Source of the DNA: a virus
Taxonomy: Duplodnaviria > Caudoviricetes
DNA: 64,000 nucleotides
Direction: 5' to 3' (one strand)
IMG/VR virus record: IMGVR_UViG_3300049228_000061
Location: 2,172 to 66,171 of that record
Position numbers and translations under genes: made by a program. This document shows positions 28,401-34,219 of this stretch, piece after piece (positions within the stretch are counted from its first letter, which is position 1; every line of letters begins with the position of its first letter). The notes under the pieces were generated by a model. It was not told the DNA's origin. It did no database searches and saw only the letters and a program-made list of their open reading frames with translations.

Positions 28401-30067
28401 AGTGGAGCCCATCGTTCGGCATGGTGAACTTTCATCGTGACTGGCAGGAAGCCATGGCCAATCTGAGCACGACGCCACTGAAAGGCAAGCAGGTAAAGGT
28501 GGCCAACTATTCCCGCAAGGCATTGGGTGGCATCTTTGCCGATGCGCGCGCGCGCCGCAAAGGCAAACATCCGACCTCCGAATGGGCCAAGTGGTATGAG
28601 CGGACGTCGGCGGCCGGCGGCCTGACCGGGTTTCGGGACATGTTTGAGACCGATGCCAAGCGCGCCGACAAGGTGGAGCAACTGTTCAAGCAGCTGGACC
28701 AAGGCATTATTGCCAAAGCGCCCAGAGAAATTGCGGGCCTGATCGAAGACATGAACACCATGTTCGAGTCTGCGGTGCGCGTTGCGGCGTTCCGGGCATA
28801 CGTGGAAATGAAAGCCGCCGAGAATGGCAACACGGATGCGACCAAGACCACCGATTACGATACTTCTTTCGACGCACGCGCCGCACAGATTTCCAAGTCC
28901 ATCACCGTGAACTTCAACAAGCGCGGTCGCCTCGGCTATTCGATGAATGCTTGGTATGCGTTCAGCAATGCCATCATCCAGGGCGTGGGCCGTAACTACG
29001 AAACACTCACCGGGCCACGTGGCCGAGCCATCATCGGCGGAGCACTGCTGGTGGGCGCGTTGCAAGCGTTCTGGCTGGCCGCTGCTGGCTTTGACGATGA
29101 TGACGATGAATCCACCCACATCGATTCGTTCGTGAAGAATCGTAGCTTCCTGATTCCCACCGGCGATGGCACCTACAAACAGTGGCCCATACCGCACGGC
29201 TTACGTTGGATCGTGGCCTTGGGGCGCATAGTGACCGAGCAGGCCATCCACAAAGGCAAGACAGCAGGAGATGCCGCCAGCGAGAGCTTTGGCGTGCTGA
29301 TGGATGCCTTTAACCCGCTGGGCACCAGTGGCAGCCTGTTGCAGATGGCGGCGCCCACCATCGCCGACATTCCGGCTGGCTTGGCAGAGAACAAGAACTA
29401 CCTTGGCCGATCAATCTATCTGGAAGGCTATGGCGACAGCGACCCCACCCCAGGCTTCGCGCGCCAGAAAGACACCGCCACGCCCGTCGGGAAGGTGGTG
29501 GCCAGAGTGATGAATACCCTGAGTGGCGGCAGCGACTTCACGCGCGGCATGGGTTCCGATGGCCGGTTTGTGGGCGACCTGTTCAGCCCGACCCCGGACC
29601 ATGTTGATTACCTCATTCAGCAACTCACCGGCGGCCCTGGGCGTGAAATTTCCAAGATTTGGCAGACCGGCGAGTCCATGTTGACCGGCGAAGACCTGCC
29701 CACCTACAAAGTGCCGCTGTGGGGCATGATTTCTGGCTCAGTGAATGAGCGCGCCGCAGAGCGCAATGCGTTCTACAAGCTGGCCACCGAAGGCGCCAAG
29801 CACAAAGCGGAGCTGGAAGGGCGTCAGGCTGATCCGTTTGGCTCGCAACAGACGCTGGATGATTACCTCAAGGAGCATCCTGGTTATCGCGGCCCCATGA
29901 TCGCGGCCACCAATGCGCAAAAGCTCAGCACCATTCGCAGCGAGAAACGTAAAGCGGCAGCCAATGGCGCGACTCAGGAGCAGCTGAATGCGTATGATGA
30001 CCGCGCCGCAGCGCTCATCACCAAGACGCTGCAGCGCAATAAAGAACTTCGTCAGGAAGCCCGCTGA
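19424..30067 (+). CDS. giant ejection / large polyvalent protein (LPD5-, LPD1-, LPD38-like and HExxH domains)
   Basis: 3547 aa; duplicated N-terminal AARKEGYxDxEI; IQDFGQRIEGARKD; GFRGVQFG...GSLAHEWLHGLDNY; LHEVVGHFGL; C-terminal ITVNFNKRG region. Confidence 0.85.
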   Translation: MALNIEAARKEGYSDAEIVDYLGTQRKLDIRAARKEGYKDSEILQHLASSNSSPTAPQGASGQAPGMASDGLKRATGDLATGRPELDIQVDDPIAPVVTPEPSFLDQAKQAWNIAMNQLGGQTLEQVQMSHQPKPTSVLDTTSAEAPAFENPASVRIPINKKYRQQFEEHWDSLSEGERALMSRQPGVAGMLAKERLELFANQDQTAPDAADDLDTRAEKRASRLVEQGIAPDVAALAARMGAKYGALPGTEMGLLGVTGEASESDFDFETAEAFNRDVGSQNVLKRGAAKGALGLGKAVTGMGEFIADVIGTERVGEAIGRGSKAIRRQEEAIGASRGDLMARAVEGAVASIGQQLPFMMAGAATGGAGIPLAAIAVTSFGNEYSDGRSQGQSMEQALARASMYSAFEVIGERFGLGEQMEMVRRAMRVKGKIPDQRTAAGLLWDMLVKQVPGEVLTTTGQFSTDKFTGGGVGLSPDATFDDYFDQVVETIATTMVQSVMMGGGTMILSGNKPPADSQPPSTPGIPESQAFATEPEIQPGVSTNAQPTPPPAPAAPQEAAPALAGEAAGPSASPDTASTPVTIDRRALADAFTIDDEGTIDAAQATTAVRAQVESALAAGTTVTQGRGKNRVAVSSADEVDVPAILAGKSRLQIGGQPLPATQQTKGGEINVSNQQTTSQDDVGLGSEASGQEQETPPAGQAEQADAVLAPEPTLAEKAKAPVVIAPSEEGLTVSVDGKPQATYPTNELPEPLVAAETPPDAAPKKRSIIKAENEAPKPGKVGAMLGAGETVLTTTGRETSPFPKIDITTNGKAGNTVKRVEKWLMENALAEAESRGDEFNARQFRANLSKPSQADKDSAEYYLFDQGFVQPARKSALKPLVETQPETPPKKSIVKAENEKPTLRRGDSVSFPIDADGNRNIGEITSIFGNKLTVTTDDGARVTISARGAEYVSKDAPATPQPTRNISGPESRLTKSAVDVDPFAPPSLEQRLQSDAELRGHLERMASEAGWEEEGGKLIRATEDETSPDYGKVVGRTKWLPKALWWAARPTGFNEKRTKETIRKALAGEPLSKPERRMVEFLRDVADGKVEDFLPTREEAQSSKPEDVLDVALVARMIERANEIDEAAVERLAIQHGDDDDGFMTAIKELVHDTDTQTTAGSGAQSGPAPSESQAGKTEAKKPVGDLFGDDVAAKQAVADEARKRDAKRNSGQDSLETGDPSDMFSQAKNQTDLMDTPAPKKAQEVSKNKLVSDDAAAVARAKDKTPEQFANWVRGRYGKPKAKELTESGQVDRWYAEANPAKAEPVVEPEAPKPVEQKPATPAPAKPTANIQDFGQRIEGARKDYAAKLRDAQTADIAKVPLSESWPEPDYAKLLEGGADSWAVGFMHAARDDIPTKPQKSWKLGRWVSQVTGLRDMVQKVMDGAYDRDMIEGRESLKSVYDRIELYQTVGHDKSLKGVRVVSGHYSVFKGIEYKPSKTIWSVESNGKQSALSNWPNMLGHGDTRAEAIAAFKKTWDATTPEQDAKKAIKFELYGRRADKTYFIGKKVGRNVVELKDGFTDVKTARAYLLEHHDELVTLLAKKKELPSERREENAPRIGIDHRNGADVTPEQFQEAFGFRGVQFGTQMEGARRQADLNDSYDALMDLAGVLGVPPKALSLNGELGLAFGARGHGGKLAPKAHYERGEVVINLTKRTGAGSLAHEWLHGLDNYFSRRGGNKAGFISLIQKAPEGVRPELFEAFKNVIRAINSTELPKRSGKLDQTRSKPYWVTTEEMVARSFESYIIAKLQDQGASNDYLANIVSPAYWDAATGLGMQKDGTYPYPLESEMPIVRAAFDHFFDVIESKPTDAGVALYQRGDATPGKLPERQVTAAINEVLRPFHRRPVLIVRQTYAQLPSDVRAAIERRGDKPGDMRAIYWNGKFYAVADDIPSMEAIPELVLHEVVGHFGLDAMLTEADKQAILDGFYDSMTDAVNERGVQEFGAKWDVGNIKTRRLATEEVLAYHFQDYLKDRQSVPEPAKTWMERLKAKISAFIKKMLRLAPVYKLPKQYDQTFMNRLADDLLRSLKSNKPLSGDGKTKAEAARDARYTEKAGIFYSHLTRSAQLAKISVGRGEQWLNTLRNMPGVKAEEIEAVDLEQFLGDRIKISKQEVVDYLGSNGVQVTETVLGGDGKVKFMDSLSAAESQRFNELLNIPGGEWNGNGYSGGRPLTAEEQSELSDLQETHLHDRVTTDAARRDAEKSATKFSKYALPGGSNYRELLLTLPSDTKAEDSGGAYYRETTGDFRSSHWDQPNVIAHIRFDERADADGKRVMHIAEVQSDWHQAGRKKGYRSPKKETSVADVKLVKEDQWNWWLADANGDEHKVSKADYERTGIDKAKQDIAFWETRKLADQNLLAVPNAPFKTTWPELAMKRAIRYAAENGFDRITWDTGATNAERYDLSKTLSSVALSGSNFKAFDLDGEEVMSRTGVRPEDLPDLIGKDAAEKLMAKKPNGTLRVLEGLDLKVGGEGMIGFYDRILPATVGKLIKKWGGKILSVRLPGSATYEQLKAAGTSTGLTQAQLDQMPVAERKALVDSKLPLSHGFNITDAMRQSAMQGLPLFQRNLPTANKSTPTAGKSADPADAQWQYPQVTKLGDGRLIRVINGIHSRVDQFLYDRVDYYLDTRRVVKAIAQKQGVETLPDNVDPMLGLELMPRRISDRVDTMMKDEFLPILEKMHALGLDIKRVEDHLQFRHARERNETIAQRNLNNPAMQDGGSGKFEREIADYFAALDPKDKAKLDEVAAMVKEYIKGTRQTLVGYGLESQVTMDLRAAAWPDYVPLQRADYENDAVYGIGQGISVKGSDSKAALGSHKEVVNILSNITKQREQAIIRGEKERVAVALYGLAEMNPNPDFWSTTNLPKIRHLDKQTGQVVSQTDPKWKSRDNVIVVKRPNRAGRIVERAIVFSERNPMAKRMVTALKGLDLPEMDKKTRLFGAYSRFISAINTQWSPSFGMVNFHRDWQEAMANLSTTPLKGKQVKVANYSRKALGGIFADARARRKGKHPTSEWAKWYERTSAAGGLTGFRDMFETDAKRADKVEQLFKQLDQGIIAKAPREIAGLIEDMNTMFESAVRVAAFRAYVEMKAAENGNTDATKTTDYDTSFDARAAQISKSITVNFNKRGRLGYSMNAWYAFSNAIIQGVGRNYETLTGPRGRAIIGGALLVGALQAFWLAAAGFDDDDDESTHIDSFVKNRSFLIPTGDGTYKQWPIPHGLRWIVALGRIVTEQAIHKGKTAGDAASESFGVLMDAFNPLGTSGSLLQMAAPTIADIPAGLAENKNYLGRSIYLEGYGDSDPTPGFARQKDTATPVGKVVARVMNTLSGGSDFTRGMGSDGRFVGDLFSPTPDHVDYLIQQLTGGPGREISKIWQTGESMLTGEDLPTYKVPLWGMISGSVNERAAERNAFYKLATEGAKHKAELEGRQADPFGSQQTLDDYLKEHPGYRGPMIAATNAQKLSTIRSEKRKAAANGATQEQLNAYDDRAAALITKTLQRNKELRQEAR

Positions 30068-30885
30068 TGCCCACGCCGAACGCCGCATCGCTTTCAATGA
30101 CCGGCTACGCGCCCACGCGGCGAGTAGACACCCGTATTGCGCCCGGCGAAACCAGTCTGGCGTTTGGTGGCTATGTGCCGTTGGTGGCAGTCAACACCAA
30201 ATCGCTGATCGTGAACCTGCCCTCCATGCTGGCCACGTTTACCGAGCGCCGCCGGCTGATTCGCGCCACCACTGACGAATTGCGGGATCTGGTGTTCCAG
30301 GGCCGAGATACGGAGTTGTACGTAGCCTTTGAGCTGAACGGAGAGGTATTCGACGCGGCCAACCTCACCGGTGTGGAGCTGGTTTATGAGGATACGGACG
30401 GCAATGACGGGATGGTGACGCAAGCCGCCTACCCAGCGGTTTTCGATATGTCCACTCGCGCGAACGTGCGCGGCAAGACAGTGAATATCCTGCGCCTGGT
30501 GTTGGACGATGCGTTCATTGCCGAATTGTTTGATGTCGGGCTGTGGACGGTGGAGGTGTTCGGATTCGATGCGGATCACCCTGGTGGCGCATTGTGGGGA
30601 GCGATGGAATGGGAAGTGCGCACTTTGTTTGATGGCGTGGCCATTGTCCCGAATACGGGCAGCTTGGCATTCACTGAACGTGCGCCAACAGTTCGCTATG
30701 ACCGCGCCCTGCCTATTACGGGCGCGCTGACGTTTACTGGAGATCAGCCTGACGTATACCTGCGCTTTGCGGGCATCCCATCTGCCGGAGCGATGGCATT
30801 CACTGGCTACCGGCCAGTGTTGAGTCCGGTTACGGTGCCGACTGGCACTCTCACGATGACGGGGGCGGCGCCAGCGATTAGTTAG
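30067..30885 (+). CDS. virion protein with Px(2-3)GxLxFxGxxP repeats
   Basis: At least six copies, e.g. PNAASLSMTGYAP, PNTGSLAFTERAP, PSAGAMAFTGYRP, PTGTLTMTGAAP. Confidence 0.7.
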   Translation: MPTPNAASLSMTGYAPTRRVDTRIAPGETSLAFGGYVPLVAVNTKSLIVNLPSMLATFTERRRLIRATTDELRDLVFQGRDTELYVAFELNGEVFDAANLTGVELVYEDTDGNDGMVTQAAYPAVFDMSTRANVRGKTVNILRLVLDDAFIAELFDVGLWTVEVFGFDADHPGGALWGAMEWEVRTLFDGVAIVPNTGSLAFTERAPTVRYDRALPITGALTFTGDQPDVYLRFAGIPSAGAMAFTGYRPVLSPVTVPTGTLTMTGAAPAIS

Positions 30886-31579
30886 GTAGCGCCAGCTGCC
30901 GCGTTTCAGCCTCAAACCGTTCCTTGGCCGCCCGCCAGTAGTCGGCATCTATCTCGCACCCCACAAAATCCACCCCGTAGTAGTGCGCTGCAATCGCCGC
31001 GCTTCCGCTGCCAAGATGGGTGTCCAAAACCTTCATGCCCGGCTGCGCGTACTGCTGCAGAAGCCATTCGTACAGTTTCACTGGCTTCTGTGTTGGGTGA
31101 ATCCGGCGCTCGTTCAGCGCCTTGTTACCCTGCTGGCGCATGCTGCCCACGCCGTCGCCCTGCATCATTCCGCGCCACATATAGCGCACCACGTCCACGC
31201 GCTCGTTCAGGCTGCAATAGGCAATTTCCGCGCCGCTCTGGTCGGCTCCGTCATTCACCTTGTCCCAAACAATCGCGCCGCCTTGCAGCTTCACCGGCAT
31301 GTAGTTCGCCCCCCATACAATCTGGTGGCGTGCCACGCGCCGCAGTTCCTCAAAGTATTTCGGTGGCGGTGGCTCGCGGTCCCAATCTTTTTTCGCGTAA
31401 CCGCCGTCAATGCACTGCAGCACCGTGCCGTTCTTTTGCTTCACGCTGTGACAACGGTTCGTGCCGCCGTCCTCGCCGCGCCCGTATGGCGGGTCAACGC
31501 AAGCCAGATCAAAGTATTGATCTGGATACCGTGCCATAACGATCATGCAGTCCTCATTGAAAAGCTCTATTTTTGGCAT
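30878..31579 (-). CDS. N6/N4 DNA methyltransferase (beta class)
   Basis: DLACVDPPY, HPTQKP and LDTHLGSGS motifs in beta order. Confidence 0.92.
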   Translation of the reverse strand: MPKIELFNEDCMIVMARYPDQYFDLACVDPPYGRGEDGGTNRCHSVKQKNGTVLQCIDGGYAKKDWDREPPPPKYFEELRRVARHQIVWGANYMPVKLQGGAIVWDKVNDGADQSGAEIAYCSLNERVDVVRYMWRGMMQGDGVGSMRQQGNKALNERRIHPTQKPVKLYEWLLQQYAQPGMKVLDTHLGSGSAAIAAHYYGVDFVGCEIDADYWRAAKERFEAETRQLALPN

Positions 31580-32028
31580 ATGGCGTCTTCCAATAAGAAA
31601 TCTGCCAAATATCTTCCGCGAACAACGGTGTTGATATTCTCGTCCCGATAACTTCCGCGCAAGCTCTCAACCCGAAAGAACATGGTTTGCTTTACGTCTG
31701 CGTTCTTCACATAGGCTATCTGTTTTTCGTCAAGTGCAACCAAGGCAAATAAATCGCAACTTGCTTCTGTATGCAACGCCCTATTCTTCTTCCCGCATCG
31801 CTTGATATTGAATGCGTATGTATTGATGTTGCTTACTCGCTGCGGGGTTTGTTTGTGCGTTCTTGTCGTTTTAACTTGAACCTTGAACAGCTTGCCGTTT
31901 GCATCAAGAACAACGTCGTATGGAAGCCCTTGCTCAGACGGGAATGCCACAAACCCCTTGGCTATCAAGTCAGCGCAAACCAAATATTCGCCAGCCTTAC
32001 CAATTTGCATGTCATCTATTTTATCCAT
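31567..32028 (-). CDS. PD-(D/E)XK endonuclease (PDDEXK_5 / I-Ssp6803I-like homing type)
   Basis: GKAGEYLV..DL...G......GLPYDVV........VQVKT; visibly more AT-rich than its flanks. Confidence 0.8.
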   Translation of the reverse strand: MDKIDDMQIGKAGEYLVCADLIAKGFVAFPSEQGLPYDVVLDANGKLFKVQVKTTRTHKQTPQRVSNINTYAFNIKRCGKKNRALHTEASCDLFALVALDEKQIAYVKNADVKQTMFFRVESLRGSYRDENINTVVRGRYLADFLLEDAICQK

Positions 32029-32049
32029 ACTGCCATTGTGCTTATGCTC

Positions 32050-32139
32050 TTATGCGAGGTCAACAATCGCCAGGTCAAAGGCTGCGTCTGGCAGCGTCGC
32101 CATGTACGTCATGCAGTCGGTATGTAGCAGCTCAATCAT
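32050..32139 (-). pseudogene. truncated MTase 5' fragment ending at the DPPY motif
   Basis: MIELLHTDCMTYMATLPDAAFDLAIVDLA* aligns with the intact MTase N-terminus KIELFNEDCMIVMARYPDQYFDLACVDPPY. Confidence 0.85.
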
Positions 32140-32170
32140 TTGCGATCGCTGTGCTTTATTAGCAGTATGC

Positions 32171-32518
32171 TCATGATTGGGTCGCCTTTATTTCAATGAT
32201 GATGCCAAATGCCTTTCCCTGCTTCTGCTTGTAGGCCCATGTCAGCAGCGGCGAGCCGTCGTCCACGCCGATCTTGTCGGCAATCCCATCGACAACGCCC
32301 TTGAATGCAGCCGTTAATCCATCTTGGCTATCCATTGGTTTGCCACGTTTTCCGTAGATCCTGGTCAGCGTGATGGCCAGCGGTGGCTTGAGCCCCGCTG
32401 GAGTGGCAAGACCAGCGATCATCCTGTCGCTTTTGGCCCTGCGCGCCCGCTTCGTCCAGTGTTCGCGCTGATTGAGGCCGTTGACGACGCGCAGCGGCAG
32501 ATGAATGGTCGGCATCAA
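32171..32518 (-). CDS. RusA-like Holliday junction resolvase
   Basis: LN.REHW.KR.R.AK, TLTR, MDSQDGL..AFK.VVDGIA...GVDD. Confidence 0.75.
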   Translation of the reverse strand: MMPTIHLPLRVVNGLNQREHWTKRARRAKSDRMIAGLATPAGLKPPLAITLTRIYGKRGKPMDSQDGLTAAFKGVVDGIADKIGVDDGSPLLTWAYKQKQGKAFGIIIEIKATQS

Positions 32519-32745
32519 AGTGGCTGGATACTATCGGCCAAGAACTTATCAATAATTTCACGCGGGACGCAGTGCTTGTGCATTATTCCTGCCGCTTGGT
32601 GCAGCACTGGAGCAATCCCATTGACGATGACGCAGCCATCAGGAAACCCTTCGGTTTTACCGTTCGCGTAGATCACATACTTATGCACGTCGCTCATGCG
32701 CACTACTACAAACGCAGCACCGTCTGGTAGGTTTTTCTCTGACAT
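32515..32745 (-). CDS. hypothetical protein
   Basis: Coupled ORF starting MSEKN. Confidence 0.55.
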   Translation of the reverse strand: MSEKNLPDGAAFVVVRMSDVHKYVIYANGKTEGFPDGCVIVNGIAPVLHQAAGIMHKHCVPREIIDKFLADSIQPL

Positions 32746-33086
32746 CACGCCCCTCTCCAATAAACACGCCGCCACCCTGTGACATTGAATGAGTCAACGT
32801 CGTAAGCGCGTTGCCCAAATTCACTGGCTTCTCCATAGGCACGAATTGACAGTACGCCGCCATGGCTGATCACGAATCCGTAATATCCTCGCCAATCGTC
32901 ACCTTGACGAAAGGTTTTTTCTGTTCCATCGGCCAGCTCGACAACTAGCGATTGGGATGATTTTGCTTTTTTATTGACGACAGGCTCATCACGCGGCCAA
33001 CCAGCCCCCATTGTTCCAATCAAAGCAATAACAGCAAAAGCAAAAGCAACAAGCAGGCCGGTAGCTAAGTAAAGTGCCCACATCAC
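32745..33086 (-). CDS. membrane-anchored hypothetical protein
   Basis: N-terminal TM helix. Confidence 0.6.
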   Translation of the reverse strand: MMWALYLATGLLVAFAFAVIALIGTMGAGWPRDEPVVNKKAKSSQSLVVELADGTEKTFRQGDDWRGYYGFVISHGGVLSIRAYGEASEFGQRAYDVDSFNVTGWRRVYWRGA

Positions 33087-33292
33087 GACACCTTCCGGTG
33101 CGGGAATGCGCCTTTGATGTGCTGGCCCAAGAATCGGCCAAGCGATTCCGACTTCACAAAGGCATCAGCCATCGTATCGGGTACGCCCTCATAGGCGTAG
33201 GTGCCTCCGTTCTTGAAGGAAACGTGAAGCTCCTGAATAGCCGGGTCATAGCCGACGGCGGCGATCTGAGTGCTGTTTTCCACGGCAGACAT
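33083..33292 (-). CDS. KTSC-domain protein
   Basis: STQIAAVGYDP...L.V.FKNGG.Y.Y.GVP......F..S.S.GRF....IKG. Confidence 0.9.
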   Translation of the reverse strand: MSAVENSTQIAAVGYDPAIQELHVSFKNGGTYAYEGVPDTMADAFVKSESLGRFLGQHIKGAFPHRKVS

Positions 33293-33304
33293 TTTCACAA
33301 AGAC

Positions 33305-33362
33305 CTCTTGTTTAATCACTCTCGAATCAATACTATTACAACAGAGAGTCATAAATCAAGAG
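33305..33362. promoter_or_regulatory. divergent promoter region with a 19-bp imperfect inverted repeat
   Basis: CTCTTGtttaatcACTCTC (33305-33323) versus GAGAGTcataaatCAAGAG (33344-33362); 16/19 complementary. Confidence 0.6.
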
Positions 33363-33373
33363 TGCTTAATTGA

Positions 33374-34219
33374 ATGCCGGAATTTGACAACGAAATCCAA
33401 CCAGACTTGATTATCCGGGCCAGCTCGCTGAGCGGTCTTTGGGATTGTCCGGCAAAATGGAAGGCTGAGCACCTGCTGGGTATGCGCATGCCGTCTGGTT
33501 CTGCTTCTGTGATCGGTACAGCCATTCACGCCGGTACTGCTGTATTCGACACGGCCAGGCTTGAGGGCGGCGCTGGCAGCGCGGAGGACGCCGTAGATGC
33601 TGCCGCTGATGCGGTACGCAATCCGCGCGATGAGGTGAGGTGGGATGATTGTCGGCCTGCTGAGGCTATTGATACCGCCGCCCGGCTGACGAACGCCTAC
33701 TGCGCCGACATTGCCCCTTCATTCACATTCAGTAAGGTTGAGGTGAGGCTGAATCATCTGGATGTGAAAGCGACCAATGGTTTAATACTTCGATTCACCG
33801 GCAACATTGACAGGGAGCGCGTGGTAGACGATCAGATCGGCGTGGCTGATTTGAAGTCTGGGGCCAACTTAGTGGATGCGAGCGGCAATGTGAAGGTATC
33901 GCTGTCAGCCGCACAAATCGGCACCTACGAATTGATTACGATCATGAGCGATGCTACCGAGCAGAAACCACACCTGCTGCCCGCTCAGATCATTGCGCTG
34001 CCAACCAAAGGCAAACATCAGCCGAAGGTGGCGACGCTGAGCAGGCCACCGCACAGTCTGCTGATTGGCGATGAACAGAACAAAGGCATGATTGATATTG
34101 CTGCGGACTATTTCAAGAACGATCTTTTCGTGGGGAATCCGCGATCCGTTTTATGTTCCGAACGCTACTGCCCAGCCTGGTCGAAATGCCGCTGGCGCAT
34201 GACTGCGGAGGCGGAATGA
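33374..34219 (+). CDS. PD-(D/E)XK (Cas4/RecB-like) recombination exonuclease
   Basis: IRASSL..LWDCP, GTAIHA, FTGNIDR..VADLKSG, C-terminal CSERYCPAWSKC; near recT. Confidence 0.85.
   Translation: MPEFDNEIQPDLIIRASSLSGLWDCPAKWKAEHLLGMRMPSGSASVIGTAIHAGTAVFDTARLEGGAGSAEDAVDAAADAVRNPRDEVRWDDCRPAEAIDTAARLTNAYCADIAPSFTFSKVEVRLNHLDVKATNGLILRFTGNIDRERVVDDQIGVADLKSGANLVDASGNVKVSLSAAQIGTYELITIMSDATEQKPHLLPAQIIALPTKGKHQPKVATLSRPPHSLLIGDEQNKGMIDIAADYFKNDLFVGNPRSVLCSERYCPAWSKCRWRMTAEAE

Follow-up and report, generated by a model that had tools for sequence, protein, structure and literature searches.

Introduction

In T4-like phages, the seg and mob genes are free-standing homing endonucleases of the GIY-YIG and HNH families, which lie between genes, cut a neighbouring gene and spread by "intronless homing". 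We know of no seg or mob gene that interrupts a gene and rebuilds it with a carried spare end. Fungal mitochondria harbour "hybrid gene" elements that do bring such an end, using LAGLIDADG or GIY-YIG nucleases, families other than the PD-(D/E)XK group considered here. I-Ssp6803I (PDB 2OST), encoded by the tRNA-fMet group I intron of Synechocystis, is a PD-(D/E)XK homing endonuclease and, to our knowledge, the only characterised enzyme of the PDDEXK_5 homing family. A 2012 review described this enzyme and its close homologues as generally cyanobacterial (PMC3384342). Hybrid genes, in which an endonuclease open reading frame (ORF) is associated with a replacement 3′ end, were reported for atp6, atp9, cox2 and nad3 of Glomus mitochondria (PMC3630166), and an account within the same article relates a mobile endonuclease ORF with a replacement 3′ gene end in the mitochondrial atp6 of Allomyces macrogynus (Paquin et al. 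1994; PMC3630166). Here, we analyse a stretch of 64,000 nucleotides (nt) from a 66-kb contig of an uncultivated Caudoviricetes virus (IMG/VR record IMGVR_UViG_3300049228_000061, positions 2,172 to 66,171), referred to as the window, in which a DNA methyltransferase (MTase) gene is broken at the codons of its catalytic DPPY motif. Judged from its sequence and from those of its relatives, the region very probably represents an intron-less homing cassette of ~566 bp with a replacement 5′ MTase end. An earlier note, made from the letters of the window alone, had proposed an intron-less homing element carrying a replacement 5′ segment, and this interpretation gains support from the chimerism of the MTase, the recurrence of the arrangement, the incongruence of its trees and the existence of uninterrupted alleles.

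The fungal mitochondrial hybrid genes are the closest precedent. As in these elements, an endonuclease ORF and a foreign gene end are inserted in a conserved gene; the foreign end takes the place of the native one, which is kept as a duplicate that is nearer to the relatives than the inserted end. In the fungal elements it is the 3′ (C-terminal) end of an organellar gene that is replaced, whereas the window shows the replacement of a 5′ end, in a phage and with a PD-(D/E)XK enzyme; what looks like 3′-end replacement with a related nuclease was also seen in other phage loci, the mirror-image group described below. With the T4 seg and mob genes the cassette shares the absence of an intron or intein, a patchy presence among related alleles (80 nuclease-free loci, and a lone cassette-bearing row in a clade of 26) and co-inherited flanks, the 5′ segment following the nuclease subtype and not the MTase body and having an equally low guanine plus cytosine (GC) content. 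The likeness to I-Ssp6803I lies in the Pfam family (PF11645), the best structural match, the YD...VQVK block and the size of ~150 amino acids (aa). Unlike I-Ssp6803I, the window gene is free-standing in a phage and does not lie inside a self-splicing intron; it sits in a protein-coding MTase gene, its putative target, and carries part of this gene along with it. Full-text searches of open-access papers turned up no account of an element of this kind within the MTase gene of a phage. Gene-end-replacing intron-less homing is itself known; what is new here is the phage host, the PD-(D/E)XK nuclease family and the opposite (5′) gene end.

Organisation of the locus

Direct reading of the sequence, together with the ORF list, gives three features on the minus strand in the order orphan 29-codon MTase start, gene of a 153-aa nuclease and complete 233-aa MTase (Table 1), which is the order that the earlier note had reported. 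The homology of the orphan stops inside the catalytic motif, as was also claimed there, with the stub ending in GTTGACC, that is Val-Asp and the first base of Pro, after which five non-homologous bases (TCGCA) precede a TAA stop. In the full MTase, GTTGACC is found again at 31498..31492 and is followed by CGCCATAC at 31491..31484. The cassette is thereby flanked by a direct repeat of GTTGACC (32064-32058 and 31498-31492), and the homology breakpoints against relatives coincide with both of its ends. Since the shared GTTGACC ends at 32058, the reconstructed uninterrupted allele is obtained by joining 32139-32058 to the sequence from 31491 downward, and the segment 32139-32056 given previously has to be corrected.

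The resemblance of the orphan to MTases is not due to chance, because it matches positions 2-28 of a profile of related MTases (E 2e-8) and it matches the N-terminus of the MTase at locus L004 with 81% aa identity (E 4e-12); at the nucleotide level, it is 88-89% identical to L008 and L040. Base composition follows the same boundaries. The GC content is 57.5% in the upstream gene and 54.9% in the stub, falls to 45.0% in the spacer and nuclease gene and to 43.2% in the new 5′ segment, and rises to 60.9% in the MTase body, giving 43-45% within the cassette vs 55-61% outside it, with a step from 43% to 61% at the DPPYG junction; the endonuclease had rightly been called AT-rich.

A reading of the region as a group I intron or an intein was rejected. 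The search against Rfam returned no RNA family at E up to 1 in 30800-32600, the distance from stub to nuclease is only 29 nt, and the MTase ATG overlaps the nuclease stop by 13 nt, a spacing that leaves no room for an intron; moreover, the MTase ORF is complete without splicing.

A chimeric methyltransferase

PF01555 (E 3e-17) identifies the 233-aa protein as a beta-class N6/N4 DNA MTase, and PHROG families named "DNA methyltransferase" match it as well. When IMG/VR was scanned with it, 80 related loci were returned, none of which (0/80) contained the nuclease. The closest of these nuclease-free alleles (L004, L005, L006 and L008) share 79-86% aa identity with the window over the body downstream of DPPY, and their N-termini, reading MIELLN.DCM.YM...FDLAIVDPPYGRGEDGG (MIELLN.DCM.YM...FDLAIV), are orphan-like, being 63-81% identical to the orphan and only 43-63% identical to the current N-terminus of the window. 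Uninterrupted alleles, which the proposal of an interrupted gene had implied, were therefore found. The current N-terminus has its relatives elsewhere; it is 81-94% identical in aa to those of L084, L086, L087, L088, L091 and L095, the bodies of which are only 39-57% identical to that of the window, and 89% identical to that of L034/L035, with bodies only 54% identical.

At the nucleotide level, homology to L034/L035 (80%) is confined to 31585-31481, and homology to the body lineage starts at 31525-31513 (for L006/L008, at 31525-31514). Over the first 90 nt, the stub joined in silico to the body resembles the relatives of the body more than the current allele does; identity to L008 in three 30-nt windows was 60/80/93% for the reconstructed allele vs 36/56/70% for the current one. 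These alignments show the window MTase to be a chimera that switches at the DPPYG codons.

When 85 MTase bodies were placed in a tree, the window formed the sole cassette-bearing row of a well-supported clade of 26, and the cassette status requires at least 9 gains or losses, at least 5 of which are forced by well-supported branches. Six bodies carrying the nuclease subtype of the window had been named beforehand from nuclease similarity, and constraining them to one clade cost 166 log-likelihood units and was rejected (approximately unbiased, AU, test, p 2.9e-8). The N-terminal tree, built on the 27 residues before DPPY and thus short and weakly resolved, placed the window stub among native N-termini, nearest to L004, and orphans as a class were scattered among native sequences; the current N-terminus of the window grouped with other cassette-linked N-termini and with L035. 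The two halves of the MTase, whose congruence had been suggested as a check, are hence incongruent, the body lying in an otherwise cassette-free clade and the N-terminus with the cassette-linked ones.

L034 and L035 (L034:3181-3840, L035:4001-4660) carry a nuclease-free MTase with a cassette-type N-terminus (MPNIELFNEDCMIVMSRYPDNYFDLACV) and no stub upstream, and their body clusters with those of the cassette-bearing L091 and L095 (support 98). Either this lineage has been stripped of its nuclease and stub, or the carried 5′ segment is at home in it.

Table 1. Features of the interrupted MTase locus, in window coordinates.
Feature	Position	Strand	Description
Orphan ORF	32139..32050	-	29 codons; translation MIELLHTDCMTYMATLPDAAFDLAIVDLA, then stop
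Orphan MTase-homologous part	32139..32058	-	ends ...GCGATTGTTGACC at 32058, then TCGCATAA
Putative inserted cassette, 566 bp	31492..32057	-	29-nt spacer on the left, nuclease gene, replacement 5′ end of the MTase
Cassette left end, 29-nt spacer	32029..32057	-	contains the orphan ORF stop and a CACAAT hexamer (32040-32035)
Nuclease ORF	32028..31567	-	153 aa; free-standing PD-(D/E)XK, homing-endonuclease-like, I-Ssp6803I type
MTase ORF	31579..30878	-	233 aa; starts MPKIELFNEDCMIVMARYPDQYFDLACVDPPYG
Replacement 5′ MTase segment	31492..31579	-	MPKIELFNEDCMIVMARYPDQYFDLACVD; travels with the nuclease
Crossover zone and putative target region	31481..31525	-	FDLA(C)VDPPYG codons; DPPY 31495-31484
Resident MTase body	30878..31491	-	beta-class N6/N4 DNA MTase; rest of DPPY motif and C-terminal S-adenosylmethionine (SAM)-binding motif

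Identity of the nuclease

The 153-aa protein matches Pfam PDDEXK_5 (PF11645) over residues 7-121 with 44.3 bits (E 2.3e-11), above the curated cut-off of 26.1, which upholds its earlier assignment to the PD-(D/E)XK nucleases. An AlphaFold model, computed with 36 relatives in the alignment, reached a mean confidence score (pLDDT) of 83.9. In a Foldseek search against the PDB, the four best matches of this model were chains of 2OST, that is I-Ssp6803I, with E 7e-7 to 1e-4 and template modelling (TM) scores of 0.54-0.64 (best E 7e-7, TM 0.60), followed by weaker matches to SPARDA nuclease domains, Holliday junction resolvases (Hjc) and EcoRV. A profile search likewise aligned the GLPYD..LKVQVK block of the family with SYD..LKVQVK of I-Ssp6803I, D38 and Q51-V52-K53 of the window protein falling on the YD...VQVK block of 2OST. 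We take these to be the PD...(D/E/Q)xK catalytic residues, by presumed equivalence with those of I-Ssp6803I. Among the 36 relatives, E14, D38, V52 and K53 are invariant and Q51 is nearly so. Profile match and modelled fold together show the nuclease to be a member of the I-Ssp6803I-type PD-(D/E)XK family.

Recurrence in other phages

A protein database search returned 1462 homologues of the nuclease at E up to 0.001, with 59-84% identity among the matches listed. Four homologues were located by exact sequence; each of the four shares 10-13 nt with the beginning of an N6/N4 MTase and has an orphan MTase stub ahead of it, for example MIELLNMDCMEYMKTCKDNEFDLAIV followed by unrelated sequence. For a wider survey, IMG/VR and GTDB genomes were scanned with a profile (the scan of IMG/VR with the single protein had given one locus), yielding 81 loci with 62 distinct nucleases. 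The order stub, nuclease and full MTase was found for 23 of the 62 distinct nucleases, and the order nuclease and full MTase for 6 more, 3 of which have shorter stubs below profile detection; most of the remaining ones are more distant or lie on truncated contigs. The arrangement thus recurs in unrelated MTases.

Most stubs end in ...GCnATTGTT or ...GTTGAC, encoding ...LAIV(D). The 5′ segment of the downstream MTases tracks the nuclease subtype, and their bodies differ widely: a MPKIEL.NEDCM.VMARYPDNYFDLACV segment accompanies the nuclease subtype of the window, and a ITDKISIYNCDCMELLKQTPDNYYSLALV segment accompanies a second subtype, whose C-terminal domain differs. Six loci of the second subtype have the same cassette left end right after ATTGTT and stubs from different native lineages.

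Variant and degenerate loci were also observed. L087:2977-3501 shows an in-frame fusion of an orphan MTase stub with the nuclease (VIELLNMDCMEYIKDCEDNAFDLAIVD-DMQIGKAGEY...), and many of the database homologues of 165-230 aa may be similar stub-nuclease fusions or over-long gene calls. At L092:1444-2330, the nuclease is reduced to its C-terminal half (profile positions 79-151), upstream of an MTase that starts ...LACVDPPYG; the locus looks like a decaying cassette copy. At L117:2324-3144, L128:2339-3123 and L130:1635-2349, an N-terminal MTase stub and a nuclease are followed by at most a short C-terminal MTase remnant (20-30 residues); these genes seem to have been lost to the cassette itself or to deletions that came after its insertion. 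L084 and L086 have an identical nuclease protein and orphan stub, and their MTases differ completely right after DPPYGIG; at the right junction, sequence seems to have been swapped between them.

A mirror-image order was found in large ParB-MTase fusion genes (L112-L114, L116, L118 and L120; for example L113:1240-3242). In these loci, a full MTase ending in a conserved tail (...FGGSGSTLIACEQTGR.CY..E..PEYVDVIIARYEKLTGNKAVLLT) is followed by a related nuclease of ~200 aa with a helix-turn-helix tail and then by an orphan C-terminal MTase fragment with FGGSGST, the SAM-binding motif, at its start; in L116 the MTase body is a different one and the conserved tail the same as in the others. To judge from this order, the mirror-image group looks like a case of 3′-end replacement by a related nuclease, with a second conserved motif of the MTase as the site.

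A further relative is found in the induced, cultured Klebsiella oxytoca phage KO-TP1 (L147, PQ571297.1:23116-24281), where a PDDEXK_5 protein, 37% identical to that of the window, runs into the start of an MTase whose motif is DPPW; no stub is evident there. We read this MTase as being of the MT-A70 type, and the phage may offer a tractable relative aimed at another MTase family.

Putative target site and immunity

Immediately before DPPY, A-I-V is encoded by 48 of 58 distinct nuclease-free alleles and by 15 of 18 orphans, and by none of the 30 cassette-linked alleles (ACV, ALV, AIC, AIT and others), although this last count overstates the independent cases because the 30 N-termini represent only about 6-8 lineages. 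Such a pattern would be expected if the nuclease recognises a site across the Ile-Val-Asp-Pro-Pro codons, and it lends comparative support to the earlier claim that the cassette alters its own target. In the rebuilt gene of the window, the native ATTGTT (Ile-Val) has become TGCGTT (Cys-Val), and the stub retains ATTGTTGACC, minus the right half of the site. The cassette would then both split and mutate its putative target, and the current allele is probably immune to the nuclease, because the stub has only a left half-site and the imported copy reads TGCGTT for ATTGTT. The putative intact site GCGATTGTTGACCCGCCATACGG was not found in the 64-kb window at up to 3 mismatches. By eye, some alleles show a pseudo-palindrome with TGGCG...CGCCA arms in this region, which depends on codon choice.

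Proposed mechanism and alternative explanations

We infer the cleavage, the exact site, the repair route, the immunity and the expression scheme of this element as follows. The cassette would consist of a short leader, a free-standing I-Ssp6803I-type endonuclease gene and the foreign first 29 codons of an MTase. The endonuclease would cut cassette-free phage MTase genes at the ...L-A-I-V-D-P-P-Y-G codons (consensus GCnATTGTT directly followed by GAyCCnCCnTAyGG) and, upon co-infection, the break would be repaired by copying from the cassette-bearing genome. As bodies of different lineages have diverged too far in their other parts, the right-hand exchange would have to resolve inside the short stretch of conserved DPPYG codons; the left-hand exchange would resolve in the MTase 5′ end, with the orphan fragment of the donor as homology arm. 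Such use of the donor stub would explain why the six loci of the second subtype have a common left end and stubs of different lineages. As a product, the resident 5′ end would be left upstream as a dead 29-codon stub, followed by a hybrid MTase made of the imported 5′ end and the resident body; because a complete hybrid MTase is rebuilt in this way, no splicing would be needed. Expression probably proceeds from the old MTase start, the stub being translated first, then the nuclease 19 nt after the stub stop and the MTase by coupling over the 13-nt overlap.

Several points weigh against this reading. The right-hand exchange would be confined to ~17-45 nt of conserved sequence, which is plausible for phage recombination. 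Left junctions vary by a few bases among cassette subtypes and some loci have shorter stubs, so that at least some (founding) events would not be simple homologous exchanges and non-homologous joining is suggested for them. A megablast of 30000-33400 against the phage collection gave no match, no cassette-free version of the same phage was found, and the empty site is for this reason deduced from MTase relatives in other phages. The small number of lineages behind the cassette-linked N-termini counts here as well. Finally, sequence identity between the nuclease model and I-Ssp6803I in the fold alignment is only 12-15%, and this sole characterised relative is intron-encoded.

Among the alternatives, the one that survives best is that the cassette arrived as described and is now a fossil, the nuclease no longer cutting or having been repurposed, and kept only because the hybrid MTase works. 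Homing endonuclease genes often decay once fixed, and decayed relatives do exist, such as the half nuclease of L092, the cassette-type 5′ end without nuclease of L034/L035 and the lost MTase bodies of L117, L128 and L130. Nevertheless, the window nuclease ORF is of full length and keeps all residues that are invariant in the 36-sequence alignment, and its group shows a nonsynonymous divergence (dN) of 0.11-0.18 with synonymous sites so saturated that only dN could be computed. The GC content of the cassette is still low and has not drifted towards the host value, which suggests that the cassette is not old. We consider a fossil improbable.

Far less credit is given to a restriction-modification-like pair, in which the nuclease would cut short unmethylated sites and the MTase would protect the phage genome, a condition under which nuclease and MTase should show matched inheritance. 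A PD-(D/E)XK nuclease does adjoin a DNA MTase to which it is probably translationally coupled, and its fold also resembles, more weakly, Hjc resolvases and EcoRV-type restriction enzymes. However, both fold and family point first to a homing enzyme, and matched inheritance was not what we found: the nuclease co-varies with the 29-codon 5′ segment and not with the MTase body, the expected site of the specificity region, nucleases 75-84% identical standing beside bodies that are only 39-57% identical and for which a single clade was rejected (see above). Because the nuclease follows the 5′ segment and the closest MTases are solitary, without a nuclease, such a pair is very unlikely; moreover, the orphan stubs prove that a solitary MTase gene was there before the insertion.

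The least probable explanation is ordinary module shuffling at the conserved DPPY sequence with the nuclease as a passive passenger, or in some other role, and not the driver, for, even though phage genomes are mosaics in which short conserved motifs can serve as recombination joints, it leaves unexplained why one nuclease family occupies one and the same codon in at least 9 separate parts of the MTase tree, why the Ile-Val codons beside the joint are changed in every cassette-linked allele and why a related nuclease subgroup stands in mirror-image arrangement at a second conserved MTase motif.

Implications of gene-end replacement

If the intron-less homing cassette with its replacement gene end is the correct reading, it would constitute a third route, besides introns and inteins, by which a homing nuclease can reside inside a useful or essential phage gene and yet spare it, by supplying a new gene end, a route hitherto described for fungal mitochondria. 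The PD-(D/E)XK homing family would expand from a single characterised cyanobacterial intron enzyme to a large phage-borne group with a predictable conserved target. Site recognition and immunity become directly testable by comparing ATTGTT with TGCGTT beside DPPY. The short "MTase-like" orphan ORFs and the chimeric MTases found in phage annotations would be explained as well, and the group would offer a pool of candidate rare-cutting enzymes.

Beyond the single locus, we lean towards the view that the window represents one of a large undescribed radiation of I-Ssp6803I-type nucleases (>1,400 proteins), specialised on the two most conserved motifs of phage MTase genes and spreading without introns or inteins by means of spare gene ends. 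The spare end would be the 5′ one, at DPPY, in one group and the 3′ one, at the SAM-binding motif FGGSGST, in a sister group. If this is true, such nucleases would continually reshuffle MTase ends between unrelated phages, and they may serve phage-phage competition by breaking the protective MTase gene of a co-infecting rival, which suggests that anti-restriction MTases are a battleground of co-infecting phages.

Insertion joint and neighbouring genes

The insertion joint itself (32063-32035, minus strand) contains a promoter-like pair, TTGACC, contributed by the target Val-Asp codons, and CACAAT, separated by 17 nt and lying before the nuclease ATG. A promoter scan found this junction-spanning TTGACC-17 nt-CACAAT pair to be no commoner than in shuffled sequence. 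The CACAAT hexamer lies 6 nt upstream of the nuclease ATG, where related cassettes have CATAAG-TAyAAT, and TATAAT or TACAAT occurs at the matching place in other cassettes.

On the minus strand, small genes without a known family (32171-33352) form a block that ends with the MTase. The upstream 115-aa neighbour had no relative in IMG/VR and matched no Pfam, NCBIfam or PHROG family. Beyond this block, a divergent gene on the plus strand (33374-34219) matches phage exonuclease families (phrog_69), and its exonuclease-like product may supply a recombination function for homing.

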